Shown in pieces: positions 14,069-34,233 of a stretch of DNA of 64,000 bases. The position numbers and the translations under genes are program-made. Below the pieces are notes generated by a model that did not search any database, was not told the DNA's origin, and saw nothing but the letters and a program-made list of their open reading frames with translations. Within the stretch, counting starts at the first letter, position 1; each line of letters starts with the position of its first letter. This stretch comes from an uncultured bacterium (GTDB taxonomy: Bacteria > Krumholzibacteriota > Krumholzibacteriia > LZORAL124-64-63), in NCBI GenBank assembly GCA_963732385.1, contig CAVSZB010000003.1, forward strand, positions 192,001 to 256,000, read 5' to 3'.

Positions 14069-14098
14069 ATTGTGCAGCAGAACGGATTCAAAAGTCAA
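14069..14098 (-). promoter_or_regulatory. Sigma70-type promoter for lipoprotein A
   Basis: TTGACT-N18-CACAAT on the minus strand, conserved in position with the copy at 16683-16712. Confidence 0.55.
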
Positions 14099-15022: not shown

Positions 15023-15291
15023 AACGGCCTCCTTGGGCATTCGGGCTCCTGCCTGGCGAGGAACTGGTGCCGGGGAATGCAAGGGGCGTTCCAGATTGAG
15101 AATAGTCTGCATGCCGGTTCAGGATAACCCGCTGTTGCCGGATGTGGCGTATCGCGGCCGGACGCCGGCAGACTGCTTTGGCAGGCTGAACCCAGGGGTG
15201 CGCCCGCCGACCCGATCCGACCGGAGTACCCGCGGCGTTGCTGCCCCCTCTTGGACTCCGCCGGTTTCGCTGCAGCGGAATCAAATGGGAA

Positions 15292-15319
15292 AGCGGCCCG
15301 GCCGAGTGGCCGGGCCGCT
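15292..15319 (-). terminator. Hairpin terminator after lipoprotein B
   Basis: AGCGGCCCGGCC-ACTC-GGCCGGGCCGCT followed by TTCCCATTT on the minus strand. Confidence 0.6.
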
Positions 15320-15366
15320 GTCTGCCGATTCGCGACGTTACGCGCCAGCCGCGAAAAATCTCTCTG

Positions 15367-16458: not shown

Positions 16459-16682
16459 TGTCTACTCCCTATGTGACACAATTAATGATATAGAATCGCG
16501 AAGCAACCATGGCCTGACCGTACGAATCATCACCTCCGCATCCGCGAGGCAAAGACCCTACAACTTCAGCGGTCAGACGAGGATGCCGCGACACCAGAGA
16601 GTGCTGCTGGCGGGTCGCCAGGGCGAAGTGCGACCGGATCAACCGCGAGTTCCCTCAACCCCCCCTTGAGGGGCGCTTTTTG

Positions 16683-16712
16683 ATCATGCAATAGAATGGA
16701 GCTAATAGTCAA
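16683..16712 (-). promoter_or_regulatory. Sigma70-type promoter for lipoprotein B
   Basis: TTGACT-N18-CATGAT; hexamers are conserved with the other copy while the spacer has diverged. Confidence 0.55.
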
Positions 16713-16984
16713 TGGGAAAGTAACGAAGAGTCAACAATATTGGGCGTGGTGCGTCGGGGCAGGGTCGTCGCGGCCTTTAAGAAGCGGGTCTGGTAGCGAC
16801 AGGCGAAATCGCCGGTCGTGGTCTCTCCCTCGACTGAACCCAGGGGGTGCGCCCGGCGGCCCGTTCCGGCCGGAGTGCCCCCTGAGTCGCTCCCCTCCTC
16901 TTTGACACAGCCGGTTTTGCCTGATAGCCTTGTCTCGGCGGAGAGGGCCCCGGGCCGATCTCTGCATACCGGGGAGATCTGGTC

Positions 16985-17779
16985 TTGAAGTGGTTGCGCC
17001 TCGCCCTGCAAACCGCTGTCATGGCTGCCGCCGTCTTCGCTGGCGCGCGGTTCGCGATGGGCCGCTCCGTGGTTTCCGTGGAGACCTGGTGTCCCTTCGG
17101 CGGCCTGGAAACGGCCTGGTCGTTCGTCACGCACAGGCGCTTCTCCTGCGCTGCGGGTGAATTGAACCTGGCGCTTTTCCTGGGGTTGCTGATTCTCACT
17201 TTGCTGGCGCGCAAGGCCTTCTGCGGCTGGGTCTGTCCGGTCGGGGCGCTTTTCGAGTGGGAGGGACGGCTGGCGCGGCGCCTGTTCCACCGGCCCGGAT
17301 TCACCGGGCTTGTGCGGGTGCCTCCCCGCGTGGACCGGTGGCTGAAGGTCGTCCTGCGGCTCGTGGTTTTGGCCGTCGTGCTGGCCGCCACCTGGAAGAC
17401 CGGGGAGCTGGTCTTCCGCGGCTACGATCCCTATTACATCCTCTTCAGCGCCAATGGGCACGACGTGCAGGCCTGGAGCTACGCCATCCTGGGCGGCCTG
17501 CTGCTGCTGGCCCTGCTGTGGCCGATGGCGTGGTGCAAATACCTCTGCCCGCTCGGGGCGGCGATCTGGCCGTTCTCAGTGGCGGGTCGGCTGAGGCTGG
17601 CAAGGGTCGCCTCCGTCTGCACCGGCTGTGGCGCCTGCGACCGGGCCTGCCCGCAGGCGCTGGACGTTTCGGGTGTGGACGAGGTGCGGTCGGGGGAATG
17701 CACCTTGTGCTTCGAGTGCACGGCTGTCTGCCCGTCTGAGGAGGCGCTCGAACTGCGCTGGGCGGGGGTGAAGCGGTGA
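16985..17779 (+). CDS. Membrane 4Fe-4S binding protein (NapH/YccM-like)
   Basis: WCPFGGLE, FCGWVCPVG, WCKYLCPLG plus two CxxCxxCxxxCP ferredoxin motifs; transmembrane helices. Confidence 0.88.
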   Translation: MKWLRLALQTAVMAAAVFAGARFAMGRSVVSVETWCPFGGLETAWSFVTHRRFSCAAGELNLALFLGLLILTLLARKAFCGWVCPVGALFEWEGRLARRLFHRPGFTGLVRVPPRVDRWLKVVLRLVVLAVVLAATWKTGELVFRGYDPYYILFSANGHDVQAWSYAILGGLLLLALLWPMAWCKYLCPLGAAIWPFSVAGRLRLARVASVCTGCGACDRACPQALDVSGVDEVRSGECTLCFECTAVCPSEEALELRWAGVKR

Positions 17780-18183
17780 AGGCGCCGTTGTGGATCGTGC
17801 CGGCGCTGATCGTGGCGTGCACCGCGGCTGCCGCGGGGGGGGCGCGGCTGTTCGCGGCCCCGAGCGTCACCCGGGAATTCGCCGCGGCGGCGCAGGGAAC
17901 CGTGTCGCGGCGCGTTGTGTTCGTGGTGAGCGGCGTCAGGTGCGTCGACACGGCGGAGGGGGCCGCGCGGCAGCTTGCGGAAACACCGGGCGCGCTCTCC
18001 TTCGCGGCGTACGCATCGCGCGGGCGGGTGGAAGTGACCTACGACGCCGCCGTCACCGATGTCCCGGCTCTGATCGAGGCGATCGAGGGGCCCGCCTACG
18101 ACGAGGCCGCGCAGGAGTTCCGGTTCGGCGTCTACGTCGTGCGCGAAGTGGATGGCGCGCGGGTCGACCAGCCCTTTCCTTGA
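17776..18183 (+). CDS. Heavy-metal-associated (HMA-like) domain protein
   Basis: N-terminal hydrophobic segment; VVFVVSGVRCVDTA...VEVTYDAAVTDVPALIEAIE fits the HMA fold but has a single Cys. Confidence 0.65.
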   Translation: MKAPLWIVPALIVACTAAAAGGARLFAAPSVTREFAAAAQGTVSRRVVFVVSGVRCVDTAEGAARQLAETPGALSFAAYASRGRVEVTYDAAVTDVPALIEAIEGPAYDEAAQEFRFGVYVVREVDGARVDQPFP

Positions 18184-18259
18184 CAGCCTGCCGATCATTT
18201 TGACGGGCTGAAGATCATTCTGACCGCTTGCAGATCATCATCACAGGAGGCGGATTTCG

Positions 18260-18658
18260 ATGCGCATCAAGAACCTCGCCCTGATTCCCGGCATTCTCCT
18301 GCTCCTGGTCGCGACTTCGGCGCTGGCGGACGAGGCCCCCGCCAAAGACGCCGTGCCGGCCGCCGAAACCGCGATTTTCGCGGTGCCGGGCCTGACCGAC
18401 GCCGCGTTGGTCAAGGATCTGACGAAGGCGCTCGCGAAACACAAGGGGGTCGTCGCCGCGAAGGCGGACGCCGAAACCGGCAAGTTCCTCGTCACCTTCG
18501 AGCCGGGCAGGACCAGCCCCGAGGCGCTGACGCGAATCGTGGCGAAGGTGGCGCCGAAGGCGCATTTCGAAACTGTCCAGGCGGCCGATGGCAAGGCGGC
18601 CGGCGGTGATCCCTGTGGCGGGTGCCCGAGCAAGGCGACCTGCGGCGGGAAGAAGTAG
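18260..18658 (+). CDS. Exported HMA-like protein with Cys-rich tail
   Basis: Signal peptide; FAVPGL...LVTFEPGRTSPEAL HMA-like fold; C-terminal CGGCPSKATC; GGAGG RBS. Confidence 0.65.
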   Translation: MRIKNLALIPGILLLLVATSALADEAPAKDAVPAAETAIFAVPGLTDAALVKDLTKALAKHKGVVAAKADAETGKFLVTFEPGRTSPEALTRIVAKVAPKAHFETVQAADGKAAGGDPCGGCPSKATCGGKK

Positions 18659-18968
18659 GAGTCGGCGGGAAGCCGTCAGGGCGGACATGGCTCGGGGAGG
18701 GCGGTGCATGACCTGGCGCCGCCCTGACCGTCTCGGGTCGTATCGACCTGCCAGGGGGCCGCGGATTTCAGCAGGTACTTGCAGGACCAGCGTGTAGCCA
18801 GTCTGAGCCGGCGCCACGCGATTGACGCCAGGCTTCCGGCGATGCTAGCATTCGGCAGCCAGACGGGAAAAAGGGGAATATGCGGTTGGACAGCCCGTTT
18901 CCTGTCGTATGGCATTGCCTGAACGCAGGCTCCGTGGAGCCTGGCGAGCAGGTTATCGGAGGCTTCCG

Positions 18969-20564
18969 GTGGTGAGGGTTTTCGTCCACAAGGAAGCGTA
19001 CTTCGATTCCGTGGTGCTGATGCTCCTCGGCCGGGAACTCAAGGGCCTGCCCGGGGTCACGGATGCCGCGGTGGCCATGGGCACCCCGATGAATCTCGCC
19101 CTGCTGACGTCCATGGGCTGCGCCGCTGGTGACCTCGCGGGGGTCGGGCCTAACGATCTCGTGATCGCTGTGGATTGCGCGGATCCTGCGCTGCTGGAGG
19201 CGGCGCTGGCGGCCGCCGAGACGGCGCTGACTCGCAGGAAAGGCTCGTCCGCGCCCGCGGGCCGGGCCGTGCGCGAGCCCTCGACGCTGGCTGGCGCGCT
19301 CGAGATGTTGCCCGGCGCCAACGTCGTGATGATCTCCATCCCCGGCGTGTACGCCGCGCGCGAGGCGCGCAAGGCGCTCGATCGCGGGCGGCATGTGATG
19401 CTCTTCTCGGACAACGTCACGCTCGATGACGAGATCGCGCTCAAGACGCACGCGCGCGAGAAGGGCCTGCTCGTGATGGGGCCCGACTGCGGTTCGGCGA
19501 TCCTGAACGGCAGGCCGCTCGGCTTCGCGAACGTCGTGCGTCGCGGACCCATTGGTGTGGTCGCCGCGTCGGGCACGGGTCTGCAGGAACTGTCCGTGCT
19601 GATCGACCGCGCGGGCTCGGGCGTCAGCCAGGCGATCGGCACCGGTGGGCGCGATCTCAGGAACGAGAGGGTCGGGGGCATCACCATGCTCATGGGCATC
19701 GAGGCGCTTGCGCGCGACGAGGCGACCAGGGTCATCGTCGTGATCTCGAAGCCGCCGGCGCCCGCGGTCGCCGCGAAGGTCGTCGCCGCGCTCGAGGCGA
19801 CGGGCAAGAGTGCGGTGGTGCATTTCATCGGCCAGGCGCGCGCGGGCGGCCCGGCGCGGTCGAACTCGCGCCTGCGACACGCGACGAACCTCGAGGAGGC
19901 CGCGGGCATGGCGGTCGCCATCGCCGGAGGGCAGAGCTACACGCCGCGCCTGTTCGCGCGGCCGGACGTCGAGATCGACGCGATCGTCGCGCGCGAGACC
20001 GCCGGTATGGCGAAGGCGCAGCGCTGGATCCGTGGCTACTTCACGGGTGGCACGCTGGCCGACGAGGCGTGGATCCTGCTGCACGCGCTCACCGGCGCGG
20101 TGTACTCGAACAACCAGACGGACCCGGCGTTCGTTCTGGCGGACCCCCGTACGTCGGTCGGGCACACGGTGGTGGATCTGGGCGACGACATGTTCACCGT
20201 CGGCCGTCCGCACCCGATGATCGACCCGGGCACGCGCACGGAGCGGATAGACGCCGAGGCCGGCGACGATTCGATCGCCGTCATGCTCGTCGACATCGTG
20301 CTCGGTTATGGTTCGCACGCCGATCCGGCGGGCGCCCTCGCGCCGTCGCTGGTCGCGGCGAAGCAGGCGGCCGCGCAACGCGGGGGGCGCCTCGCGGTGG
20401 TCGCCTCGATCACCGGCACGAACGGCGACCACCAGGGCTACGCGCGGCAGAAGGCGGTGCTCGAGGCGGCCGACGTCGTGGTAATGCCCTCGAACTTCCA
20501 GGCGTCGATGCTGGCGGTGCGCATCCTGGAGAAGGTTCTGGCGAACGCGGCCGGTGCGCGATGA
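18969..20564 (+). CDS. fdrA: FdrA/YahF (AllF)-like acyl-CoA synthetase-fold protein
   Basis: YFDSVVLM, MLFSDNV, LLVMGPDCG, VAASGTGLQE, AIGTGGRDL, DLGDDMFTVGRPHPMIDP; GTG start after GGAGG. Confidence 0.92.
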   Translation: MVRVFVHKEAYFDSVVLMLLGRELKGLPGVTDAAVAMGTPMNLALLTSMGCAAGDLAGVGPNDLVIAVDCADPALLEAALAAAETALTRRKGSSAPAGRAVREPSTLAGALEMLPGANVVMISIPGVYAAREARKALDRGRHVMLFSDNVTLDDEIALKTHAREKGLLVMGPDCGSAILNGRPLGFANVVRRGPIGVVAASGTGLQELSVLIDRAGSGVSQAIGTGGRDLRNERVGGITMLMGIEALARDEATRVIVVISKPPAPAVAAKVVAALEATGKSAVVHFIGQARAGGPARSNSRLRHATNLEEAAGMAVAIAGGQSYTPRLFARPDVEIDAIVARETAGMAKAQRWIRGYFTGGTLADEAWILLHALTGAVYSNNQTDPAFVLADPRTSVGHTVVDLGDDMFTVGRPHPMIDPGTRTERIDAEAGDDSIAVMLVDIVLGYGSHADPAGALAPSLVAAKQAAAQRGGRLAVVASITGTNGDHQGYARQKAVLEAADVVVMPSNFQASMLAVRILEKVLANAAGAR

Positions 20565-21994
20565 GCGGGCCCGACGTCCAGGCGGTCACCGATTTGTTTG
20601 CGTCCGAACTGGCGGTCATCAACCTCGGTCTGGAGGCCTTCGCGGAGAACCTGCGGGCGTGCGACACGCCCGTGGTGCAGGTGCGCTGGAAGCCGCCGGC
20701 AGGCGGTGACGCGCGCATGATCGAGGCTCTTGACCGCATCGCGAGCAACCCGCGCGTGGATGTCGATGCCGCCAACGCGCTCGCCGCGGAGCGCATCATG
20801 AAGAGCAGGCCGATGCTCATGGGTGTCGGTGTCGCGGGCGAGGTCGTGCCCGGGATGAAGCCGAACATGGTGCTTCACTCCGGTCCGCCGGTGACGTGGC
20901 AGAGGATGTGCGGCCCCCTGAAGGGCGCGGTCATCGGCGGCCTGCTCTACGAGGGCCTGGCGAATACGCGCGCCCAGGCCGAGGACCTCGCCGCTTCGGG
21001 CGCCATTGTATTCGAGCCCTGTCATCACCACGACGCGGTGGGCCCCATGGCGGGGGTGATGACGTCGCGCATGCCGGTGTGGATCCTCGGGAACGCCACG
21101 TACGGCAACCGCGCCTACTGCACGTTCAACGAGGGGCTTGGCAAGGTCCTGCGGTACGGTGCGTTTTCCGGCGAAGTGCTCGAGCGGTTGCGCTGGCTGG
21201 AGACCGATCTCGCACCAGTTCTGAGCAAGGCGCTGGAACTCCACGGGCCGATCGACATGCGCAGCCTTATCGCGCAGGCGCTGCAGATGGGGGATGAAGG
21301 GCATAACCGCAATCGCGCCGGCACTTCGCTGTTGATCCGCGAGCTCGCGTCCTTCCTGGTGCAGGTGGACGAGCCGAAGGAGCGTATTGCGAAGGTCCTC
21401 TTATTCATGCATGAGAACGACCATTTCTTCCTCAACCTCACGATGCCTTCCGCCAAGTGCGCGGTGGACGCGGCGCGGGGCATCGAGGGCAGCTCCGTCA
21501 TCACGACCATGGCGCGCAACGGCACCGACTTCGGCATTCGCCTCTCCGGCCTGGGGGAGCGCTGGTTCACCGGTCCGGCGGGGATGGTCGACGGGCTCTA
21601 CCTGCCGGGCTTCGGTCCGCAGGACGCCGCGCCGGACATCGGCGACTCGGTGATCACCGAGACCGCGGGCATCGGCGGATTCGCGATGGCCGCTGCGCCC
21701 GCGATCGTGAAGTTCATCGGCGGCAAACCGGCGGATGCGATCGACTTCACGCTGAGCATGTACGAGATCACAGTAGCGGAAAACAACGCCTATCAGATTC
21801 CGGTTCTCGATTTCCGCGGCACGCCCACGGGCATCGACGTCCGCAAGGTCGTCGAATCGGGGATCCTCCCGGTAATCAATACGGGAATCGCCCATCGAGA
21901 GCCGGGGATCGGCATGGTGGGCGCGGGGCTCGTCAAGCCCCCCAGGAACTGTTTCGAGGACGCGTTGCTGGCGTTCGCGGCGGCAATCGCCTGA
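20561..21994 (+). CDS. ylbE: DUF1116 (YlbE/YahG, AllG)-family protein
   Basis: LHSGPP, PCHHHDAVGPMAG, NEGLGKVLRYGA, MGDEGHNRN, NDHFFLNL, DIGDSVITET, INTGIAH; start overlaps the fdrA stop (ATGA). Confidence 0.92.
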   Translation: MSGPDVQAVTDLFASELAVINLGLEAFAENLRACDTPVVQVRWKPPAGGDARMIEALDRIASNPRVDVDAANALAAERIMKSRPMLMGVGVAGEVVPGMKPNMVLHSGPPVTWQRMCGPLKGAVIGGLLYEGLANTRAQAEDLAASGAIVFEPCHHHDAVGPMAGVMTSRMPVWILGNATYGNRAYCTFNEGLGKVLRYGAFSGEVLERLRWLETDLAPVLSKALELHGPIDMRSLIAQALQMGDEGHNRNRAGTSLLIRELASFLVQVDEPKERIAKVLLFMHENDHFFLNLTMPSAKCAVDAARGIEGSSVITTMARNGTDFGIRLSGLGERWFTGPAGMVDGLYLPGFGPQDAAPDIGDSVITETAGIGGFAMAAAPAIVKFIGGKPADAIDFTLSMYEITVAENNAYQIPVLDFRGTPTGIDVRKVVESGILPVINTGIAHREPGIGMVGAGLVKPPRNCFEDALLAFAAAIA

Positions 21995-22022
21995 ACGGGA
22001 AACACGGTCCAGGAGACGCACC

Positions 22023-22901
22023 ATGAAGATGATCGATTTGACCATTCCGCTCGGCATCGGCACCCCGCCGTGGCCGACGTACACGCCGCTGCAGGTCCAG
22101 TACTTCAAGCGCCTCGCTCCCCACGGCGCCAATGGACAGGTGGTGACGCACTCGAACCATGTCGGCACCCATCTCGACGGCGAGATCCACTTCCACTCGC
22201 CGGGCAAGGACATCGCAAGTCTCGACATGGATTTCCTGGTCCACGATGGCGCGATCGTCGATCTCTCGGACGTCTGCGGCGACTATGACGTGTACACGTC
22301 GAAGATGGTCGAGGAGCGCGTCGAGGTCTTGCCGGGCGACATCCTTCTCATCCACACCGGTTTCCATCACTACGGCTGGGATCAGCCGACCGCGGACGAG
22401 GTCCGCTACATGGTCAGGCACCCGGGTCCGGATCGGGAGTTCGCCGTCTGGGCCAAGAAGAAGAAGCTGCGCTGGATCGGCGTGGACTGCGGCAGCGCCG
22501 ACCATCCGATGAACACCAAGATCCGCGAATGGATGCCTGTCCAGGCCAGGGAGTGCGACGAGCACTTTCGCGCCAGATACAAGCGGGGCCTGGAAGAGGT
22601 GTTCACTCCGGACAAGTACCAGTTGATGCACCTGGAGATGTTCCACAAGGGCCTGATCCATGCCGAGTGCGTCGGCGGCGACATCGACCTGCTGCTGAAC
22701 CAGAGGGCGCTCATCGGCTGCTTCCCGTGGCGGTTCGTCGACGGCGAGTCGAGCATCGCCCGCATCGTCGCCATGGTTGAAGACGCACGCTACGCCAGGC
22801 TCATGGCCAAAAAGAAGAAAGCCAGGCTCACGAAGTTCGGCGACGTCGCGGGCGCCCGGAATCCGTGGCTCCACGACGAGGCGAAGAAGAAACGGAAGTA
22901 A
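22023..22901 (+). CDS. Cyclase-family (kynurenine formamidase-like) metal-dependent amidohydrolase
   Basis: IDLTIPL, HVGTHLDG (HxGTHxD), GDILLIHTG, IGVDCGSAD. Confidence 0.9.
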   Translation: MKMIDLTIPLGIGTPPWPTYTPLQVQYFKRLAPHGANGQVVTHSNHVGTHLDGEIHFHSPGKDIASLDMDFLVHDGAIVDLSDVCGDYDVYTSKMVEERVEVLPGDILLIHTGFHHYGWDQPTADEVRYMVRHPGPDREFAVWAKKKKLRWIGVDCGSADHPMNTKIREWMPVQARECDEHFRARYKRGLEEVFTPDKYQLMHLEMFHKGLIHAECVGGDIDLLLNQRALIGCFPWRFVDGESSIARIVAMVEDARYARLMAKKKKARLTKFGDVAGARNPWLHDEAKKKRK

Positions 22902-22974
22902 GGCGGGCCCGCGAACGCCCGGAAACCTGCCGGCCGACAAGCGCCGGCGTCATTGACCGGAATGGAGAAGCACG

Positions 22975-23667
22975 ATGGCGATCGACCAGCTGGAAATGAA
23001 ACTCCGGCCCCCGGCAGCGAAGCTGGCGCCGTACCCCGCGAAGCTGATCACTCTCGCCTCAGGGGAGAAGATGGTCGTGCGCGAGGCGCGTCGCGAAGAC
23101 ACCGGCGCCCTGCTGGGCACCGTGTACCCGTTGCTTGCGGTAGCGAAGGACTACTACGACATCGTCGCCGCCCGCATGTACAGCGAGATTCTCGGCTGGT
23201 TTCGCTATCGGGTCGCCAACGAATTCATCATCGTCGGAGCCATCGATGGCATCATCGCGGGCATTGTCACGAGCCGTCACGTCAAAGAAGGGCTCGGCAT
23301 GAGCCTGCACACGCTTACCATCAAGCGCGGCCTGCGCGTCGGCGCCCAGCTCTTCGCGGCCAAGATGGAGCATCATATCGAATATCTGGACGAGAACGAG
23401 GTGCACATCGTCGCGGAGAGCCCGATCGGCTTCAAGCGCTGGATGATCGAGTACGAACTCGAGGACCGTTCCGCCCAGTACCCGGAACTGCGCCACGAAC
23501 TCGGCGGCGTGCCCACGTTCACGCTCACGCGCAAGCTGTGGGAAGCGGTCAGGCCGGCGAAGTGCACGGGCACGCGGCCCGTGCCGGCCGAGCTTCTGAA
23601 GACTGCGGAAAAGCTCATCATGCCCGATGAGTACGTGCAGCTTCCCGGCTGGAAGCGGGGCGACTGA
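22975..23667 (+). CDS. Putative GNAT-fold acyltransferase
   Basis: VVREARRED...IVGAIDGIIAG...KRGLRVGAQLF resembles GNAT motif A; co-oriented within the operon. Confidence 0.6.
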   Translation: MAIDQLEMKLRPPAAKLAPYPAKLITLASGEKMVVREARREDTGALLGTVYPLLAVAKDYYDIVAARMYSEILGWFRYRVANEFIIVGAIDGIIAGIVTSRHVKEGLGMSLHTLTIKRGLRVGAQLFAAKMEHHIEYLDENEVHIVAESPIGFKRWMIEYELEDRSAQYPELRHELGGVPTFTLTRKLWEAVRPAKCTGTRPVPAELLKTAEKLIMPDEYVQLPGWKRGD

Positions 23668-24866
23668 TGGCGCCTCGTATCGGAATCGTCGGCATCGGAC
23701 ATTGCCGGTTCGGCAATTCGAGCGAGTACGATCTCGTGGACGTGATCGCGTATTCGGCGAACGACGCCTTCCGCGACGCGGGCGGTCTTCACTTGCGCAA
23801 GCAGGTCGACCAGGTCCTCGTCGGCAACATGGCGGCGGGCCTGTTCAACCACCAGACCTCCGTGGCCTCCGCGCTGGTCAGCCGGATGGATATGGAACCG
23901 TGTCCGGCCGAACTTGTCGAGAACGGTCCAGCCTCGGGTGCGAGCGCGATACGTTTGGGGTACATGGCGATCGCCTCGGGCATGGCCGACGTCGTCCTGG
24001 TGGCGGCGGGTGAGGTCATGCGGACGGTGTCGGGCTGGGAGGCCACGAACATCGTGGCCACCATGGCGCACACCGAGGCCGAGTACAACATGGGTCTTAC
24101 GCTGCCTGGTTTCGCCGGGATGTTCACGCGGTTGTACATGCAGAAGTACGGCATGACCGAGCGCGATCTCGCCCTGGTGGCGGTGAAGGACCACGCGAAC
24201 GGCGCGAAGAACATCTATGCGCATGTCCAGATCCCCGTCACGATCGAGGCGATCGCCGATGGCGAGAACGCAAGCGTGGTGAACAACTACGTCGCCGAGC
24301 CGCTGCGCATGTATTCGACCTGCCCGATCAGCGACGGCTCCGCGGCGGTGATCCTGGTCAACATGGACTCGCCCAAGGTGGATCTCTTCAGGAACAAGCC
24401 CATCCGGATCGCGGGGATCGCTTCAGCGACCGATACCCACTGCGTACACAATCGCAAGGATCCGCTCGTACTCGACGCCGTCCGCTTGTCGGCGGAAAAA
24501 GCGTATGCCATGGCGGGCGTGACGCCGCAGGACATCTCTCTGGCCGAGCTGCACGATGCGTTCGTGATCTTCGAGCTTCTCAACAGCGAGGAAGTCGGCT
24601 TCTTCGAGCGCGGCAAGTCGTTTCTCGGCGTGCGCAACGGCGAGACCGAAATCGGCGGCCGGATCCCGATCAACACCTCGGGCGGCCTCAAGGCCAAAGG
24701 GCACCCCGTGGGCGCCACCGGCGTATCTCAGGTCGTGGAACTCGTCCGGCAGCTGCGCGGCGAGGCCGAAGAAGGGCGCCAGGTCAAGGACCCAAAATTC
24801 GGCCTGGCGGTCAATTTCGGCGGTTTTGGCAACAATGTCGTAACCACGATCCTGGCGAAGGACTAG
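23667..24866 (+). CDS. SCP2/archaeal-type thiolase-fold protein lacking the canonical nucleophilic Cys
   Basis: CPISDGSAA, AELHDAF, INTSGGLKAKGHPVGATG, NFGG; the usual ExACASG reads ENGPASG. Confidence 0.88.
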   Translation: MAPRIGIVGIGHCRFGNSSEYDLVDVIAYSANDAFRDAGGLHLRKQVDQVLVGNMAAGLFNHQTSVASALVSRMDMEPCPAELVENGPASGASAIRLGYMAIASGMADVVLVAAGEVMRTVSGWEATNIVATMAHTEAEYNMGLTLPGFAGMFTRLYMQKYGMTERDLALVAVKDHANGAKNIYAHVQIPVTIEAIADGENASVVNNYVAEPLRMYSTCPISDGSAAVILVNMDSPKVDLFRNKPIRIAGIASATDTHCVHNRKDPLVLDAVRLSAEKAYAMAGVTPQDISLAELHDAFVIFELLNSEEVGFFERGKSFLGVRNGETEIGGRIPINTSGGLKAKGHPVGATGVSQVVELVRQLRGEAEEGRQVKDPKFGLAVNFGGFGNNVVTTILAKD

Positions 24867-24876
24867 GGAGCCACTG

Positions 24877-25260
24877 ATGATCGATTTCAGCATTTACGGC
24901 GAGCAGACGCCCCACATCAGCGGCTACCGGTGCCTGAAGTGCGGCTCGATCTATTACCCTGCGCCCATGGTGTGCAGGAAGTGCGACGCCCCCCGCGACC
25001 CCTCCACGGGGCGCCATTGGGAGCCCTTCGATCTCGAAGGACCGTGCACCCTGCTTACCTGGACACGGGTGTGGAATCTGCCCGAGGGCTTCAACGTGAA
25101 GTTCCTGATGTTCGCCATGGTGGAGTTCCCGAACGGCCTGCGCGCTTCAGGGCGTCTCGAATGCGAAGGAGACCCGGTTATCGGGGCGAAGCTCGATGCG
25201 AGGGTGATCGAGGCTGACGAACGCCCCGGCCCGGCGGTGAAGGTGTTCGTTTTCAGTTGA
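24877..25260 (+). CDS. DUF35 Zn-ribbon/OB-fold protein (thiolase partner)
   Basis: GYRCLKCGSIYYPAPMVCRKC followed by an OB-fold-like segment; adjacent to the thiolase. Confidence 0.85.
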   Translation: MIDFSIYGEQTPHISGYRCLKCGSIYYPAPMVCRKCDAPRDPSTGRHWEPFDLEGPCTLLTWTRVWNLPEGFNVKFLMFAMVEFPNGLRASGRLECEGDPVIGAKLDARVIEADERPGPAVKVFVFS

Positions 25261-25291
25261 GACGGGATTCCCGTGAAGGAAGCCCTGATCC

Positions 25292-26224
25292 GTGCATCAC
25301 GTGTCCCTCATAACAACGCGGCGGACCGCGGTCGCGATCGGCTCCGAAGTCCCGGTCGGGGGCTTCGATTTTCGCGTCCACAGCCTGTTCGGCCCGGCGA
25401 TGAATCTGGCGGTTCCGGGACGCCGCGGCCTCATCACGCTCGTCGGTGCAGACGCCGACGATTACCCTCAGGGCATCCGGCTCGCGACGCACGAACGCTT
25501 CGATGCGTGGCCTGTGTCCGCCGGAACGCGCGGTCATCGCGAGGGCGACACGCTGGTGTTCGAAGGCCAGGACGGCGATGATAACCCCGTTGTCGATCTC
25601 TCGGTCGCCGTCAGGGCGACGCGCCGGGCGCCGCCGCGCATCGACCCGGGCGCCAAGACGTCACGCGAAACCTGGGTGGTCTGCGCCCGCCATCTCGACG
25701 CGCTGCAGGAGGAGAAGCGGACGGACCTGCGGCTGGCGGCGCTCTGCGGCGGATCATCCCCGCCTACGCGCCTGGGTGCGCGGCTGGCCGGGGAGGCGCG
25801 CAGGCTGGCGAGCGGTTTGCGCGCGAAGAACGCGGACCTGGCTGGCGGCGCCGCGGCCGGCATGATGGGTCTTGGCGCGGGGCTGACCCCCGCGGGAGAC
25901 GATTTCCTGTGCGGGCTCCTCGCCGCGCTCTGGTGCGCGAGCGGAGAGGGCAGCCAGGAGCGCGGTTTCATGGTCGAGTGGGGCGGGACTCTCGCGGCCC
26001 GGCTGGGGGCGACGACCGTGATCAGCGCGACCTGTCTGGAGTGCGCGATCGCCGGATGTTTCTCCGGAGCGGTGTCCGCGCTCGCCGCCGCCTTCGCCGG
26101 CGATCATGCGCACGAAGGCGCGCGCGCGGCACTGGACGACCTGTGCGCGCATGGTCACAGTTCAGGGATGGATACCGCGACCGGATTCCTGTTCGGACTC
26201 CGGCTCCGGGCCACCGAGGAATGA
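25292..26224 (+). CDS. ylbF: DUF2877 (YlbF/AllH)-family protein
   Basis: MGLGAGLTPAGDDFLCG, TTVISA and GHSSGMDTATG signatures. Confidence 0.85.
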   Translation: MHHVSLITTRRTAVAIGSEVPVGGFDFRVHSLFGPAMNLAVPGRRGLITLVGADADDYPQGIRLATHERFDAWPVSAGTRGHREGDTLVFEGQDGDDNPVVDLSVAVRATRRAPPRIDPGAKTSRETWVVCARHLDALQEEKRTDLRLAALCGGSSPPTRLGARLAGEARRLASGLRAKNADLAGGAAAGMMGLGAGLTPAGDDFLCGLLAALWCASGEGSQERGFMVEWGGTLAARLGATTVISATCLECAIAGCFSGAVSALAAAFAGDHAHEGARAALDDLCAHGHSSGMDTATGFLFGLRLRATEE

Positions 26225-26230
26225 GGCGAT

Positions 26231-27046
26231 ATGCTCCACAGCTTTGAATACCGGGCGCCACGGCAGCGCGCCGAGCTCCTCGGGCTCCTCGCCGACCACG
26301 GCGGGGCGGCCAGGCTGCTGGCCGGAGGCACCGATCTGCTCGTCAACATCCGCGCCGGTTCCGTTTCGCCGGCGCTGGTGCTCGATGTCAAGCGCGTGGC
26401 GGGCTATGGCGAGATGTCGTGGAGCGAGGCGGAAGGTCTCGTGATCCGGCCCGCGACGACGATCAACGACATCCTGCGCGATTCGCGAATCCATGAGGAC
26501 TATCCGCTGCTCGTTTCGTGCGCGCGCGACCTCGCGTCCTACCAGATACGCAATCGCGCGACGGTGATCGGCAACATAGTCAACGCGTCGCCGTGCGCCG
26601 ATATGGCGCCGGCCCTGCTGTGCCTGGACGCGTACGCGGTGATCGCCTCGATGAAGGGTGAGCGCGTGGTTCCGCTTCGCGAGTTCTTCACCGGCGTCCG
26701 GCGCACCGTGCTCGCGACCGGTGAAATCATCGACCGCGTCGTGGTGCCCGCCGCGGCCGCCGGCGCTCGCGGCGCATACCGGAAGCTCAAGCGCATCAAT
26801 GGCCACGACCTCGGCATTGTCGGAGTGGCCGTCCACAAGCAGTCCGGAGCAATGCGGCTCGCCATCAGCTCGGCGGCGCCAACGCCCGTGCTCGTGGACG
26901 GGCTCGCGGAGTCCGCGCCCGCCGATACGGTCGTCGCGGCCGTCCGCGAGGCGATCAGCCCCATCAGCGACCTGCGCTGCACGAAGGAGTATCGCGAACA
27001 CATGGTTGAGGTCTTCGTTCGTCGGCTGTTGCTGGAGGTGAAGTAA
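26231..27046 (+). CDS. Xanthine dehydrogenase-family FAD-binding subunit
   Basis: LLAGGTDL, QIRNRATVIGNIVNASPCAD, SPISDLR. Confidence 0.92.
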   Translation: MLHSFEYRAPRQRAELLGLLADHGGAARLLAGGTDLLVNIRAGSVSPALVLDVKRVAGYGEMSWSEAEGLVIRPATTINDILRDSRIHEDYPLLVSCARDLASYQIRNRATVIGNIVNASPCADMAPALLCLDAYAVIASMKGERVVPLREFFTGVRRTVLATGEIIDRVVVPAAAAGARGAYRKLKRINGHDLGIVGVAVHKQSGAMRLAISSAAPTPVLVDGLAESAPADTVVAAVREAISPISDLRCTKEYREHMVEVFVRRLLLEVK

Positions 27047-27531
27047 TGAAGATCTCGGTCACGGTCAACGGACAGGCTTACGAGCGCGAGATAGTGGGAC
27101 ACCGCACGCTGCTGCATTTCCTGCGTGAGGATGTCGGGCTGACGGGCGCCAGGGAGGGCTGCGGCGCCGGCGAGTGTGGCGCCTGCACCGTACTGCTCGA
27201 CGGGCTCGCCGTGAACGCATGCATGATCCTCGCCGTCGAAGCCGACGGGCGCAGGATCGAGACGATCGAAGGCGAGGCGAAGGACGGGCGGCTCTCGGCG
27301 ATCCAGGAGGCGTTCAGCCGCAATCACGCCGTGCAGTGCGGCTTCTGCACCGGCGGCATGATCATGTCTGTACGCGAACTGCTGGCGCGCAACCCGAAAC
27401 CCACGATTGCCGAGATCAAGGCGGGCATCGAGGGCAACTTCTGCCGTTGCACCGGTTACCAGCAGATCATCGAGGCCGTGCTTGACGCGTCCGGTCAGCT
27501 CACGGAAAAGGGCGGGGTGAAGTATGCATGA
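27046..27531 (+). CDS. Xanthine dehydrogenase-family 2Fe-2S subunit
   Basis: GCGAGECGACTV, QCGFCTGG, GNFCRCTGY. Confidence 0.95.
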   Translation: MKISVTVNGQAYEREIVGHRTLLHFLREDVGLTGAREGCGAGECGACTVLLDGLAVNACMILAVEADGRRIETIEGEAKDGRLSAIQEAFSRNHAVQCGFCTGGMIMSVRELLARNPKPTIAEIKAGIEGNFCRCTGYQQIIEAVLDASGQLTEKGGVKYA

Positions 27532-29935
27532 GAACGCCGACCCCGGGACGCTGAAGTACGTCGGCAAAAGCAGCGATCGCTCGGAGGTCACCGAGAAGCT
27601 GACCGGCGAGGCCGTCTATACCAGCGACCTGTCGTTTCCCGGCATGCTGCACGCCCAGATCAAGCAGAGCCCGCACGCACGGGCGCGCATCTGCAGCATC
27701 GACACCTCGCAGGCCGAGCGTCTGCCTGGAGTGCGCGCCGTACTCACGGGCGCAGAACTGGACTACCGGCTCGGTCTTTACATTGTCGACAAGCACATCC
27801 TTGCCCGCGGTGAAGTGCGCCACTTCGGCGAAGCCGTCGCCGCGGTCGCCGCGGACACGCTTGCCATCGCCCGGCGCGCGGCCGACCTGATCGAGGTGGA
27901 ATACGCCGTGCTGCCCGCCGTCCTGAACCACATGGACGCACTGAAGGAAGGCGCCCCGCTGGTTCATCCGGACCTTGGCCGGTACGACCACGTCGCCGCG
28001 GCCTTCACGCCGGCTCCGGGCACCAACATCGCGAACCTGACCAGGCTGCGGAAGGGTGACGTCGAGCAGGGCTTTGCCGAATCCGCGTGGCTGATCGAGC
28101 GCGAGTACACGAATCCCTCGGTGCAGCACGTGCCGATGGAGACACACGTCGCGATCGCCGAATGGAAGGCGGGCGACAACATCAACATCTGGTCCAGCGC
28201 GCAGTCGCCGTTCACCGTGCGCAATCTGTTCTGCCATACGTTCGGGCTGCCGCTCAACAAGGTGCGGGTGATGGTGCCGCACGTCGGCGGCGGATTCGGA
28301 GGCAAGGCCGGCATCCATCTCGAGCCCCTCGTGGCCTGCCTCTCGCGCAAGGCGGGCGGCCGGCCGGTCAAATTCCAGGCCACGCGCGAAGAGGAGTTCA
28401 GCCTGCTGCCGTGCCGCAGCGCGCTCACCTACCGGATCAAGACCGGCGTCGCCGCTGACGGCAAAATCATCGCCCAGAAGATGACCATGTATTGGGACGC
28501 CGGCGCCTACGCCGACTACGCGGTGAATGTCACGCGCGCGTCGGGCTACTCCGCTGCGGGTCCCTACGAGATTCCCAACGCCTGGGTGGACGCCTACACG
28601 CTTTACACGAACAAGCCGTACGGCACGGCGTATCGCGGCTTCGGGCACGTTGAGTTCTTCTGGGGGGTCGAGCGCCACATGGAGCTCATCGCCGATGTTA
28701 TCGGCATGGACCCGCTTGAGTTCCGCCGCAGGAACGCGCTCGTGCCCGGTTCGAAAACGTTGACTGGCGAGACGATCACCAGCAACACCGGCGACGTCAC
28801 CCGGTGCATCGACGCGGTTGCCGAGTCGATCGGTTACGGCCGGCTCGATGCTGACGAATCGGCCCGCGAGCAGCGCACCGGCCGCAAGATCGGCAAGGGC
28901 CTCGCGGCATTGCACAAGGCGCCGGCCATGCCGCCGTTCACCGCCTCGGCCATTGTCATCAAGATGAACTCCGACGGCACCGTGGTCGTCAACCTCGGCC
29001 TGACCGAAATCGGCCAGGGCTCCACCACGGCGATGGCGCAGATCGTGGCCGAGCGGCTGAAATTCGATATGGCGAAAGTAAAGATCTGCGTAGACAAGGA
29101 TACCGACCGCGATCCGTACGACTGGCAGACCGTCGCCTCGAAGGGGCTGATCCTGAGTGGAAACGCGGCGATCCTGGCGTGTGATGACCTGCTGGGAAAC
29201 GCGTACAGCGTCGCCGCCCAGGTGCTGCGGGCCCAGGTGCTGGACCTCGATCATGACTCCGAGAAGGTGTTCGTGAAGCACCATCCCGATCACTCGGTGA
29301 CCTTCGCGGCCCTTGCGGTCGGCTATGCGTTTCCCAACGGCAATGCGATCGGCGGTCCGCTCATCGGCGTGGGACGATACGTGGCGCAGGGGCTTTCGAA
29401 CCTCGACAAGGAGACCGGACAGGGCAACCCCGCCCTCGACTGGACCTATGGGGCGCACGGCGTGATCGTGGAGGTGGATCCCGTGAGCGGCGAGTACCAC
29501 GTCCTCAAGATTGCGTCGGCGTTCGACGTCGGCAAGGTGATCAACCCGGAGATCGTGCGCGGCCAGTGCATCGGCGGCATGGTGCAGGGCCTCGGGACCG
29601 CGATCTGCGAAGGCTACATCTACGACGAGCAGGGGCACCTCCTGAACCCGTCGTTTACGGACAACAAGATCCCCACCGCGCGCGATATCCCCGATGTGAT
29701 CGAAAGCATTGCGGTGGAGACGCCGCAGCTCGACGGACCATACGGCGCCCGCGGCGTTGGCGAGCATCCGATGATTTCCGTGGCTCCCGCGCTCGGCAAT
29801 GCCATCAGGCATGCCGTCGGCGCCGAGCTGACGCACATGCCGATTCGGGCCGAGGACGTGTGGCGCGCGATGGGAAACAGGGAATCAATCGATAACTGGA
29901 TCACGAAGACGCCGAACAGGTCCTGCAAAGCGTGA
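27524..29935 (+). CDS. Xanthine dehydrogenase-family molybdopterin-binding subunit
   Basis: VGGGFGGK, AYRGFG, EIGQG, GPYGARGVGE with the catalytic Glu. Confidence 0.93.
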   Translation: MHENADPGTLKYVGKSSDRSEVTEKLTGEAVYTSDLSFPGMLHAQIKQSPHARARICSIDTSQAERLPGVRAVLTGAELDYRLGLYIVDKHILARGEVRHFGEAVAAVAADTLAIARRAADLIEVEYAVLPAVLNHMDALKEGAPLVHPDLGRYDHVAAAFTPAPGTNIANLTRLRKGDVEQGFAESAWLIEREYTNPSVQHVPMETHVAIAEWKAGDNINIWSSAQSPFTVRNLFCHTFGLPLNKVRVMVPHVGGGFGGKAGIHLEPLVACLSRKAGGRPVKFQATREEEFSLLPCRSALTYRIKTGVAADGKIIAQKMTMYWDAGAYADYAVNVTRASGYSAAGPYEIPNAWVDAYTLYTNKPYGTAYRGFGHVEFFWGVERHMELIADVIGMDPLEFRRRNALVPGSKTLTGETITSNTGDVTRCIDAVAESIGYGRLDADESAREQRTGRKIGKGLAALHKAPAMPPFTASAIVIKMNSDGTVVVNLGLTEIGQGSTTAMAQIVAERLKFDMAKVKICVDKDTDRDPYDWQTVASKGLILSGNAAILACDDLLGNAYSVAAQVLRAQVLDLDHDSEKVFVKHHPDHSVTFAALAVGYAFPNGNAIGGPLIGVGRYVAQGLSNLDKETGQGNPALDWTYGAHGVIVEVDPVSGEYHVLKIASAFDVGKVINPEIVRGQCIGGMVQGLGTAICEGYIYDEQGHLLNPSFTDNKIPTARDIPDVIESIAVETPQLDGPYGARGVGEHPMISVAPALGNAIRHAVGAELTHMPIRAEDVWRAMGNRESIDNWITKTPNRSCKA

Positions 29936-30371: not shown

Positions 30372-30488
30372 TGTCGATTGCAAATGCTCGTCCAGAACGT
30401 GTAGCAGCTGCCGATAGCATAACGGGAACAGGCGGGCGCTCTTATTCCGCGGGCGTTGATGAGCCTGGCACAGAGGGGAGTCGGGAGC

Positions 30489-30983
30489 ATGAGCAGTCAG
30501 GTTGAAGCTGTCCTGGCGAGTCACCCCGGGGCGGGGCGAGACAAGCTGATCCCGATCCTGCAGGAGGTGCAGGAGGCCGAGGGCTACCTGTCGGAGCCGG
30601 CGATCGTGGCGATAGGCCGGCACCTGAAGCTGCCGGCCAGCAAGATCTACGGGGTGGCCACCTTCTACAACCAGTTCCGCTTCGCGCCAAAGGGGCGCTT
30701 CCACGTCATGATCTGCCGCGGCACCGCCTGTCACGTGAAGGGCTCGGCCAAGGTGCTCGATACGGTGACCCGGTCGCTGCGCCTGGAGCCGGGGCAGACC
30801 TCCCGCGACGGGCTGTTCAGCCTCGAGGTGGTGGCGTGCATGGGCGCCTGCGCCCTGTCGCCGGCGATCGCCATCAACGGGCAGTTCTTTCCGAAGGTGT
30901 CGCCCACGAAGATCGTCAAGCTGCTGGACCAGTGCCGGCAGGAAGCGGCGGCGAAGACCCCGGATGCGGTGACCAACGCGTGA
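30489..30983 (+). CDS. hydC: NuoE-like 2Fe-2S hydrogenase subunit (HydC/HndA-like)
   Basis: LIPILQEVQ, YGVATFYNQF, CRGTACHVKGS, VACMGACALSP. Confidence 0.92.
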   Translation: MSSQVEAVLASHPGAGRDKLIPILQEVQEAEGYLSEPAIVAIGRHLKLPASKIYGVATFYNQFRFAPKGRFHVMICRGTACHVKGSAKVLDTVTRSLRLEPGQTSRDGLFSLEVVACMGACALSPAIAINGQFFPKVSPTKIVKLLDQCRQEAAAKTPDAVTNA

Positions 30984-31043
30984 CGAAGTAACCCCCCGCG
31001 CCGGCGGTCGGGCCGCGGGCGGCGGGGCCGAGGAGAGTACGTC

Positions 31044-34000
31044 ATGATGCGATTCGCCAATGAACGGCAGCTGGAAACCTACCGAGAGTCCCTCAAGGCC
31101 GCACACGACCCGACCAGAACGCGCATCTGCGTGTGCGGCGGCACGGGGTGCAACGCGCAGGGGTCGATCGATCTGGTGCGCGAGCTGCGGGCGGCGGTCG
31201 GGAAGTACGGGCTGGCCGACAGGGTCGAGGTCAAGGCCACCGGGTGCCACGGCTTCTGCGAGAAGGGGCCGGTAGTGGTGGTGCGGCCCGAGAACATCTT
31301 CTACGTGCTCGTGAAGCCGGACGACGCCGACGAACTGGTGCGGGTGACCTGCGTCGAGAAAGGCGTGGTTGAGCGGCTGCAGTACATCGACCCGACCTCC
31401 GGGCAGCGCATCTTGCGTGAGCAGGACGTGCCATTCTACAAGCAGCAGATGCGCGTCATTCTGGGCGACAACGGGCACCTCGACCCCACCTCCATCGACG
31501 ACTACCTGCTCAACGGCGGCTACATGGCGCTGGGGAAGGCCCTCACGAACCTGACGCCGGAAGACGTCATCGACGAAGTGAAGCGCGCCGGGCTGCGCGG
31601 GCGCGGGGGAGCCGGCTTCCCCACCGCCCGCAAGTGGGAGCTGTGCCGCCAGCAGCCGGGCGACGAGAAATACATCATCTGCAACGCCGATGAGGGCGAT
31701 CCGGGCGCCTACATGAACCGCTCGGAGCTGGAAGGCAATCCGCACCTCATGATCGAGGGCATGATGATCGGGGCCTACGCCATCGGGGCGAGCAAGGCCT
31801 ACATCTACTGCCGCGCGGAGTATCCCCTGGCGATCGAGCAGGTGGAACGGGCGATCGCGCAGGCCCGGGAATGCGGGCTGCTCGGGGAGAACATCCTCGA
31901 CAGCGGCTTCAGCCTCGACATGGTCATCAAGATGGGCGCCGGCGCCTTCGTGTGCGGCGAGGAGACCGCCCTCATGGCCAGCATCGAGGGCAAGCGCGGC
32001 ATGCCGCGGCCGCGGCCGCCGTTCCCGGCGCAGTCGGGCGTGTTCGGCAGTCCGTCGAACATCAACAACGTCGAGACCTGGTGCAACGTGCCGCTCATTT
32101 TGGCGCGTGGCGCCGACTGGTTCGCCGGCATCGGGAGCGAGAAGTCTAAGGGGACGAAGGTGTTCTCGCTGGTCGGCTGTGTGAACAACACCGGTCTGGT
32201 GGAGGTGCCGTTCGGCACCTCGTTGCGTGAGATAGTCAATGAGATAGGCGGCGGCGTTCCGCGCGGGCGGAAGTTCAAGGCCGCGCAGATGGGTGGGCCG
32301 TCGGGCGGGTGCATCCCGGCCAGCCAGATGGACGTCAAGATCGATTACGAGTCTCTGCAGTCGCTCGGCGCGATCGTCGGTTCGGGCGGCCTGGTGGTGA
32401 TGGACGAGAGCACCTGCATGGTGGACCTCGCCAAGTACTTCATGGAGTTCATCCAGTCCGAGTCGTGCGGCAAGTGCATTCCGTGCCGCGAGGGAACGCG
32501 GCGCATGCACGAGATCCTGGTCGCGCTGACGCGGCCGCGGGGCAAGGACGAGGAGCTCGACGCGCTGCTGCGATTCCAGGGTGTTATGGAGCTGGAACGA
32601 CTGGCCGAGGTGATCCGGCGCACGTCGCTGTGCGGGCTGGGGCAGACCGCCCCGAATCCGGTGCTCAGCACGCTGAGGTGGTTCCGCGAAGAGTACGAGC
32701 AGCACGTGTTCGAGCGGCGGTGCGCCGCCGGTTCGTGCAAGGAGCTCGTCGGCGCGCCGTGCCAGAACGGCTGCCCGGTCGGCACGGAGGTGTGGCGCTA
32801 CGTGGCGCACATCGGCCGCGGCGAGGTGCAGGAGGCGTACCAGGCGATCCGCAGCGCGAATCCGTTCCCGTCGGCCTGCGCGCGCGTGTGCAATCACCCC
32901 TGCGAGATGATCTGCCGCGCCGGCGCCAGCGGACGGCGACCCGGTCGCCATCCGCACGCTGAAGCGTTACGTGGTGGATCACGTCGATCCGGCCAGCTAC
33001 CGGACGACCATTCTGCCCGCGGCCCCCGAGGCGAAGAAGGTGGCTGTGGTCGGCGCCGGTCCGGCGGGGCTCACGGCGGCGCACGAGCTTTCGAAGCGGG
33101 GTTACCGCGTGGCTCTGATCGAGCGCGAGGCGAAGGCCGGCGGCATGCTGGTGGCCGGCATCCCCGCGTACCGGTTGCCGCGCGACATCCTCGAACGTGA
33201 GATCGCCGCTCTGCTCGATCCCAACATCACGCTGCGCCTGAACACGGAGCTCGGGCGGGATGTCACGCTCGAAGAGCTGCGGCGCGACCACGCGGCCGTG
33301 TACGTGACCCTGGGCTCGCACCGCTCGAAGACGCTCGGGCTGCCGGGTGAGGAGGTGGCGGGGGTCGTGCCGGGCATCCGCTTCCTGAAGGCGTGGAACC
33401 TGGGCGGTGAGTGCCTCGCTCGCGGGCGCGTGGGGGTCATCGGCGGCGGAAACTCGGCGCTCGACGCGGCGCGGGTGGCTCTGCGCCAGCCGGACGTGAC
33501 GTCGGTCACCATCCTCTACCGACGCTCCCGCGAGGAGATGCCGGCGTACGCGGAGGAGATCCACGCGGCGCTCGAGGAAGGCATCGCGCTCGAGACGATG
33601 GTGGCGCCCACCGGTCTCGCCGCAGCGAGCGGACATCTGACCGGCGTGCTGCTCCAGCGCAACACTTTGGGTGAGCCCGATGCCGGCGGTCGGCGACGGC
33701 CGGTACCGATCCCCGGCAGCGAATTCATGTTGTCGCTCGATACGCTCGTGGTGGCGATCAGCGAGGAGCCGGAGCTTGAAGCCCTGGCTGAGCTCAAGAA
33801 GACGCGCGGCGGCGGCCTGAGCGTGGACACCGAGGCTTCCACGACCAGCCTGCCGGGCGTCTTCGCCGGCGGCGATGTGGCGACGGGGCCCAACACGGTG
33901 ATCGCGGCGATTGCGGCCGGCAAGGACGCGGCGATGATGATCGACCGCTATGTGCATGGACGCCAGTTGAAACGGCTGCCGCGGGTGCTGCTGCCTACGG

Positions 34001-34191: not shown

Positions 34192-34233
34192 CGGGCGGCA
34201 CGTCATGTGGGACGCTGAAAGAGGAGACTCCTC

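Follow-up and report, generated by a model that had tools for sequence, protein, structure and literature searches.

What does a bacterium degrade with an operon in which homologues of the Escherichia coli AllFGH subunits are encoded side by side with a cyclase-family hydrolase, a thiolase-like protein and a molybdenum (Mo) hydroxylase? The question is raised by a 64,000-nucleotide stretch of DNA from an uncultured bacterium of the phylum Krumholzibacteriota (contig CAVSZB010000003.1, positions 192,001–256,000; hereafter the window), which carries ten co-oriented genes on the + strand at positions 18969–29935, neighbours overlapping by up to 8 nt or standing up to 73 nt apart. An earlier note on this DNA listed the ten genes, remarked on the lack of a carbamate kinase and an allantoinase, and proposed a catabolic pathway for a purine-, pyridine- or pyrimidine-like ring. 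Pfam and NCBIfam searches confirm its coordinates and gene list: all three AllFGH subunit families—FdrA, AllG (PF06545) and AllH (PF11392)—are present, and neither carbamate kinase nor allantoinase was found in the 64 kb window. Our reading, to which we assign a probability of about one half, is that the operon encodes an oxygen-independent, ATP-yielding variant of the oxidative pyrimidine pathway, in which uracil would be degraded via barbiturate.

The first step towards an answer is to ask whether the ten genes belong together. The 230-amino-acid (aa) product of the fourth gene was chosen as the most specific marker, and was used as a probe on one genome per species. This gave 317 confirmed loci in species-representative genomes—the cassette marker is thus present in at least 317 genomes—of which 80 were kept and compared with the window proteins by tblastn. 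All ten genes are found in the same order and on the same strand in 28 of the 80 loci, and the six-gene core from allF to the DUF35 gene is in order in 44; the trio made up of the 230-aa protein, the thiolase-like protein and the DUF35 protein is detected in 74–77. Many of the incomplete loci are cut by contig ends, and related genomes that carry the cassette are not independent samples. The synteny check proposed in the earlier note therefore finds the gene set conserved as a unit, in an arrangement that is far beyond chance.

The record labels of the 28 full loci, five when taken at phylum level, are Spirochaetota (Sphaerochaeta, Treponema, Gracilinema and Rectinemataceae), Acidobacteriota, Eisenbacteria, Anaeromyxobacter and Caldisericota. 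Carriers in culture include Sphaerochaeta sp. PS 2 (locus L062), Sphaerochaeta halotolerans and Gracilinema caldarium. Across the 28 full loci, median identity to the window proteins lies at 62–85% for all but allH, the least conserved member, which has a median of 32% (range 27–55%); the cyclase stands at 80–89%. The 230-aa protein has 2556 homologues, with 74–100% identity across very different phyla among the 120 matches listed, and its family is compact (158 representatives among 1.84 billion). Among 151 genomes sampled from the window's own phylum, the 230-aa protein occurs in seven, AllG in seven and both in six, and the carriers all belong to one family. Between phyla, the cassette proteins share 70–96% identity. 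Such high identity, combined with patchy presence in the window's own phylum (7 of 151), suggests that the cassette is a useful catabolic module that has spread horizontally.

The second step is to examine which genes the relatives carry in addition to the ten. A UraA-type NCS2 permease lies inside the cluster in 31 of the 50 allG-containing loci (tblastn), a GntR/FCD regulator in 34, and arcC, encoding carbamate kinase, in eight. Five of the permeases were tested, and the best NCBIfam model for every one is the uracil permease (NF007995), with scores of 343–587 bits as compared with 189–231 bits for xanthine permease; one of the five (locus L024) reaches 587.5 bits, above the model's cut-off of 477. 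In all three permeases inspected, the nucleobase-ascorbate transporter (NAT) motif begins with Glu, which we take to be the UraA/PyrP type, Gln presumably being found in xanthine and urate carriers. One of the carbamate kinases (locus L045), at 374.4 bits, exceeds the cut-off of 358.25. Helper genes for the Mo cofactor (MobA-like, XdhC) are also found in some relatives, the MobA-like gene in eight of the 50. Since the relatives' clusters hold a UraA-type permease, a GntR regulator and a carbamate kinase, the most likely substrate is a pyrimidine, uracil or thymine. The N-heterocycle of the earlier note fits, and its three candidate ring types are narrowed by the uracil-type permeases to one.

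The pathway that we propose would consist of five steps: (i) hydroxylation of uracil or thymine at C6 by the FAD/2Fe-2S/Mo enzyme, giving (5-methyl)barbiturate, (ii) opening of the barbiturate ring by the cyclase-family metal hydrolase, giving ureidomalonate, an N-acylurea, (iii) cleavage of ureidomalonate with phosphate by AllF-AllG-AllH, giving carbamoyl phosphate and malonamate, (iv) conversion of carbamoyl phosphate to ATP, CO2 and NH3 by a carbamate kinase encoded elsewhere in this genome, and (v) release of CO2 and NH3 from malonamate or malonate by the trio, perhaps with an amidase, leaving an acetyl unit. The third step has its model in the E. coli enzyme, which acts on oxalurate, a compound one CH2 shorter than ureidomalonate. 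Individual step assignments are less likely than the reading as a whole; this applies especially to the choice of ring opener over amidase for the cyclase and to the substrate of the trio. The sequence of events put forward in the earlier note—Mo-dependent hydroxylation, ring opening, an AllFGH step and further conversion of the carbon left from the ring—has a logic that fits the comparative context. Of its other elements, C–C cleavage is unlikely to be thiolytic, and a link to the neighbouring hydrogenase finds no support in synteny (see below).

What the AllFGH homologues contribute can be judged by comparison with E. coli. E. coli AllFGH interconverts oxalurate plus phosphate with oxamate plus carbamoyl phosphate (PMC11326118). 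Like E. coli AllFGH (FdrA/YlbE/YlbF) with its carbamate kinase AllK, the present cassette combines the three subunit families, in relatives with an adjoining carbamate kinase, and its predicted reaction likewise uses phosphate to split an N-acylurea into carbamoyl phosphate and an amide. It differs in four respects: the cluster in the window has neither a carbamate kinase partner nor allantoin genes; four genes separate allH from allF and allG; a Mo hydroxylase, a cyclase and the trio are included; and the predicted substrate would be ureidomalonate, not oxalurate. AllFGH here probably still makes carbamoyl phosphate, because arcC lies inside relatives' clusters and is also present elsewhere in the window's genome, as a single copy above cut-off on another contig (C4), away from the cluster. 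For the same reason, formation of carbamoyl phosphate is more likely than the distinct "activation" suggested in the earlier note. The missing carbamate kinase is a local feature of the window cluster. If the proposal is true, the AllFGH transcarbamylase family, newly defined, gains a second substrate and a second pathway, and the ureide part of pyrimidines joins allantoin and arginine as a source of ATP for anaerobes.

The other half of the comparison is with pyrimidine catabolism. The aerobic oxidative pathway consists of uracil/thymine dehydrogenase, barbiturase and ureidomalonase. The route proposed here shares its predicted intermediates (uracil, barbiturate and ureidomalonate) and a first hydroxylation with oxygen derived from water. 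It departs from that pathway in that (i) a cyclase-family hydrolase would take the place of an AtzD/TrzD-type barbiturase, (ii) AllFGH phosphorolysis followed by carbamate kinase, yielding ATP, would replace the hydrolytic ureidomalonase, which yields urea, and (iii) an extra trio is present for the C3 remnant, in a cluster found in anaerobes. Four known pyrimidine routes—oxidative, reductive, Rut and URC—are named in a 2025 paper (PMC12507026). In the full-text literature searched, which is mostly that outside subscription journals, no published description was found of the cluster, of the trio or of a role for AllFGH homologues in the degradation of pyrimidines, and no characterised pathway matches the operon. 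As far as that literature shows, this is a widespread catabolic operon that has yet to be described, and it includes a new three-protein unit. If our reading of it is true, it supplies testable candidate genes for steps of oxidative pyrimidine breakdown.

How specific is the evidence from the Mo enzyme itself? The Mo subunit falls below every NCBIfam equivalog cut-off, its best match being XdhA (502.6 against 780 bits), and it reaches 427.3 of 783.65 bits for PucD and 342.9 of 991.15 and 391.8 of 950 bits for the CO dehydrogenase models. The three models for 4-hydroxybenzoyl-CoA reductase (4-HBCR) give 474.5 against 994.55 (alpha), 101.7 against 404.55 (beta) and 176.5 against 257.8 bits (gamma). 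The nearest solved relatives of the Mo subunit are diverse: the 4-HBCR alpha subunit 1RM6 (the best, E 1e-92), a CoxL-like protein and a subunit of 6-hydroxypseudooxynicotine dehydrogenase. It contains the motif GVGE, whose Glu we take to be catalytic, and the stretch GGGFGGKA, with Ala at the position of Glu802 of bovine xanthine dehydrogenase (XDH), presumably a functional residue. The enzyme looks like an XDH-family hydroxylase to which the curated models assign no specificity. Variant cassettes (L067, L070, L074, L076 and L079) carry divergent XDH paralogues with 41–53% identity. In a further variant with a divergent Mo enzyme, the cassette adjoins SelD-like (AIRS), class-V aminotransferase and TusA genes (L069:8665–11682), a hint that the Mo hydroxylase of this lineage may depend on selenium. 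The relative L001, which is 96% identical, has a Mo region (14954–17620) made up of separate open reading frames (ORFs), with MoCoBD_1 at 14954–15487 and MoCoBD_2 at 16547–17620, and without a full-length tblastn match; a broken or replaced Mo gene is possible in this relative.

The cyclase has kynurenine formamidases as its nearest solved relatives (E 5e-9) and contains the sequence HVGTHLDGEIH (HxGTHxD), which we take to be the metal-binding motif.

Several observations weigh against the pyrimidine reading. Firstly, the enzymes do not themselves name uracil: the only characterised AllFGH substrate is oxalurate, which is purine-derived, and the best NCBIfam and PDB matches of the Mo subunit (XdhA and 4-HBCR) do not point to uracil either. 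Secondly, there are two reservations about the ring-opening step. An AtzD/TrzD-type barbiturase (PF09663) has no match in the window's genome, which, like the lack of an allantoinase above cut-off, speaks for the proposed route in that a competing one is missing; but this negative stands without a positive control, as there was no match in 14 control genomes either. In addition, a CN_hydrolase replaces the cyclase beside the trio in 14 of the 30 loci without detected allG (and in none of the 50 allG-containing loci), and given this swap the cyclase could be an amidase for the C3 amide rather than a ring opener. Thirdly, the evidence on transport is uneven: four of the five permeases tested (343–417 bits) fall below the uracil-permease cut-off, the window cluster has no permease, regulator or carbamate kinase, and a search of the window and its genome (95.8% complete) turned up no NCS2 permease.

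These points leave room for other substrates. The alternative that survives best, although we consider it unlikely, is that the same enzyme logic serves another N-heterocycle or ureide, such as orotate, 5-substituted uracils, deaminated cytosine, or a hydantoin-like or pyridine-type ring. It would sit comfortably with a Mo subunit under all equivalog cut-offs, with the divergent XDH paralogues of the variant cassettes, and with both the permease scores below cut-off and the lack of an NCS2 permease in the window's genome. However, AllFGH chemistry requires an N-acylurea, which is not obtainable from pyridines, the recurrent transporter of the cassette is the UraA-type permease, and a thiolase-fold protein would suit a C3 beta-dicarbonyl remnant.

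We regard as distinctly improbable a purine route, in which the Mo enzyme is a xanthine or hypoxanthine dehydrogenase, oxalurate is the substrate of AllFGH as it is in E. coli, and oxamate or oxalate is left to the products of the other genes. The demonstrated AllFGH reaction, which uses oxalurate, and the XdhA match of the Mo subunit speak for it, and NCS2 permeases include xanthine and urate carriers as well. Yet the XdhA score is far under its cut-off and the position equivalent to Glu802, presumably a functional residue, is Ala; no allantoinase reaches cut-off in the genome (the best match, on another contig, has 233.7 against 357.85 bits) and the loci scanned showed no allantoin genes; all five permeases are nearer to uracil than to xanthine permease; and the unit of thiolase-fold and DUF35 proteins would have no obvious role on the C2 compound oxamate. 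Finally, an aromatic acyl-CoA route—with AllF as an acyl-CoA synthetase (it has CoA-ligase domains), the Mo enzyme as a 4-HBCR-like dehydroxylase (1RM6 being its best PDB match), and the thiolase-like and DUF35 proteins as a BbsAB-like benzoylsuccinyl-CoA thiolase (BbsA and BbsB match weakly)—is very hard to credit, given the 4-HBCR score of less than half its cut-off, a BbsB score of 152 against 750 bits, the missing BbsB-type nucleophilic Cys, and cluster partners in relatives that are a uracil-type permease and carbamate kinase, with no aromatic-CoA genes.

Under the pyrimidine reading, the final step would fall to the trio. The 230-aa protein shows no significant match in Pfam, in NCBIfam, in a phmmer search of the PDB or in a search of the PDB with a profile of a 41-row family alignment; the best matches in the last are GNATs, at a non-significant E of 0.42, and three of the 41 family members touch the GNAT model PF00583 (best E 0.0096). 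AlphaFold2 run on the single sequence gave a predicted local distance difference test (pLDDT) score of 33.7, and the model used is that from the 41-row alignment, with a pLDDT of 91.3. Foldseek returned 225 PDB matches to this model at E ≤ 0.001, those listed being without exception GNAT-type acyl- or acetyltransferases or uncharacterised proteins, with RimJ, Rv0998 and the GNAT domain of PatZ at the top (identity 11–16%, TM-score 0.42–0.52); a language-model search with the protein also pointed to GNAT. The earlier note had called this protein a GNAT, and the fold upholds that call. Invariant residues of the family are R118, G119, L120, R121, G123 and A124, and the stretch R118-G-L-R-V-G123-A124 resembles what we take to be the GNAT pyrophosphate-binding motif.

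The closest structures to the thiolase-like protein are archaeal-type acetoacetyl-CoA thiolases (7YVY, E 6e-79; 6ESQ, E 8e-63), and its score for PRK06064 is 394.5 bits, below the cut-off of 420. Alignment with the acetyl-CoA acetyltransferase 7YVY places Pro88 at the position of the nucleophilic Cys (ENGPASG against EAACASG), and Pro is found there in 80 of 80 homologues. Judged by these residues, the protein keeps the fold and cannot be a working thiolase. Canonical thiolysis was rejected on this ground, and the C–C cleavage envisaged in the earlier note is unlikely to be thiolytic. Judging from NCBIfam matches, members of this family are probably mis-annotated as acetyl-CoA acetyltransferases. 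In the DUF35 protein, the zinc-ribbon residues C19, C22, C33 and C36 are invariant across 30 sequences. A structure prediction for a complex of the three proteins scored 0.01 against a mark of 0.32; it was run without controls and counts neither way.

The trio does not always keep company with AllFGH. Some loci combine the trio with a CN_hydrolase and have no allG; of five genomes with a trio locus without allG, four encode AllG elsewhere; and in one Verrucomicrobia genome, allF, allG and the cyclase gene form a module of their own. For these reasons there seem to be two modules: one of allF, allG and the cyclase, and one of the trio with a nearby amide or nitrile hydrolase. In a Desulfovibrionaceae locus (L066:4795–12280), a sigma-54 activator, a DUF485 protein with an ActP-like monocarboxylate symporter and a Nit6803-type nitrilase precede the trio; AllG was not found in that genome, and the sequence of the locus suggests that the trio has a different feeder here. 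In locus L011, no XDH genes were detected by tblastn, and the cassette is followed by genes for an aldehyde dehydrogenase, an M20 peptidase and a PydA-like Fer4_20/Pyr_redox_2 protein (12537–16826); the neighbours of this trio are reductive-pyrimidine-type genes.

What might such a trio do? Since enolates are stabilised by a thiolase fold, a C3 unit with a beta-carboxy group, as derived from pyrimidine C4–C6, would be a fitting substrate, unlike the purine-derived C2 compound oxamate. Other assemblies of thiolase and DUF35 proteins are PhlACB, BbsAB and Ltp2-ChsH2. The archaeal complex of thiolase, HMG-CoA synthase (HMGCS) and DUF35 couples an uphill step to a downhill step. The present trio, a putative assembly, resembles the archaeal complex (6ESQ/6ET9) in that a similar thiolase fold is followed by DUF35 and a third protein is encoded directly upstream. 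It is unlike that complex in having Pro in place of Cys, and in a third partner with a GNAT fold and not the fold of HMGCS or ketoacyl synthase III (KAS III); no HMG-CoA synthase was detected in the cluster by Pfam. The two differ also in context, which here is catabolic and concerns nucleobases. By analogy with the archaeal complex, we can imagine—as a long shot—that the trio is a new enzyme complex that converts malonamate directly to acetyl-CoA. The GNAT subunit, as a reversed N-acyltransferase, would perform an uphill exchange of amide for thioester with release of NH3, and decarboxylation of malonyl-CoA on the thiolase-fold subunit would pull that exchange. If this idea is true, one uracil ring yields two high-energy compounds, carbamoyl phosphate and acetyl-CoA, and pyrimidines are a real energy source for anaerobes of sediment and gut. 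Our reading of the operon, if right, also brings to light a widespread, near-invariant three-protein unit.

The layout of the operon is given in Table 1. The allF gene starts with GTG at 18969, preceded at a distance of 6 nt by GGAGG, and its stop codon shares a 4-nt overlap with the ATG of allG. Its product scores 514.7 bits against the NCBIfam FdrA model NF004760 (cut-off 433) and has E. coli FdrA (3DMY, E 6e-88) as its closest PDB match. A promoter-like site lies upstream of allF at 18822–18851, although the number of such sites is at chance level, and the scan showed no terminator-like site on the + strand 3' of the Mo gene.

Table 1. The ten genes of the operon, with window coordinates and the families or models on which each assignment is based.
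Gene or product	Position	Strand	Family or basis
allF (FdrA-type subunit; succinyl-CoA-synthetase-alpha-like CoA_binding and Ligase_CoA domains)	18969–20564	+	PF00549, PF02629
allG (DUF1116 subunit)	20561–21994	+	PF06545, E 1e-99
cyclase-family metal-dependent hydrolase	22023–22901	+	PF04199, E 3e-29
230-aa GNAT-fold protein, family without a name	22975–23667	+	fold from AlphaFold2 model
thiolase-fold protein without nucleophilic Cys (ENGPASG)	23667–24866	+	Thiolase_N PF00108, Thiolase_C_1 PF22691
DUF35 zinc-ribbon/OB-fold partner protein	24877–25260	+	PF12172
allH (DUF2877 subunit)	25292–26224	+	PF11392, E 3e-25
XDH-family FAD-binding subunit	26231–27046	+	PF00941, PF03450
XDH-family 2x[2Fe-2S] subunit	27046–27531	+	PF01799, PF00111
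XDH-family molybdopterin subunit	27524–29935	+	PF01315, PF02738, PF20256

Downstream of the operon, on the same strand, lies an [FeFe] hydrogenase set (30456–35955) consisting of HydC-like (PF01257), NuoF-like HydB with Fer4_20, a GltD-like Pyr_redox_2 protein and HydA. The earlier note had raised the possibility that electrons pass from the pathway to this hydrogenase. HydC follows the cluster in one of the 80 loci, the relative L001, and a conserved electron link was accordingly rejected on synteny. In this organism, electrons from the first step could nonetheless plausibly go to the [FeFe] hydrogenase, which is of the bifurcating type and lies 521 nt downstream. The HydB frame (31044–33200) overlaps the ORF at 32971–34191 by ~230 nt in a different frame, with the Fer4_20 and Pyr_redox_2 halves of a GltD-type unit flanking the overlap; either a fused gene has undergone a frameshift here, or the two genes may truly overlap. 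Beside the hydrogenase set, the product of 36346–38457 fuses an [FeFe]-hydrogenase H-cluster domain (PF02906) and Fe-S motifs to HisKA and HATPase_c, and is a putative hydrogen-sensing histidine kinase.

On the other side of the operon, just 5' of allF, three genes at 16985–18658 encode a Fer4_5 membrane Fe-S protein, a 135-aa protein without an assignment and an HMA-domain protein; as L001, the closest relative, is the only one to conserve these genes, they lie outside the cassette. Farther away, two neighbouring genes on the − strand (592–3741 and 4562–7708) encode proteins of ~1050 aa that have FlgD_ig and type IX secretion sorting domains in common at the C terminus, and look like a tandem duplicate; the stretch that holds them has a GC content of 0.60, as compared with ~0.67 elsewhere. 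There is also a break in composition at 58001–62000, with a GC content of 0.737 and a GC skew of −0.21 at 58–60 kb and a GC content of 0.565 at 60–62 kb. A NERD-UvrD helicase-like gene and two AbiEi antitoxin-like genes, at 39562–42550 and 56283–56921, are possible defence or toxin-antitoxin elements.

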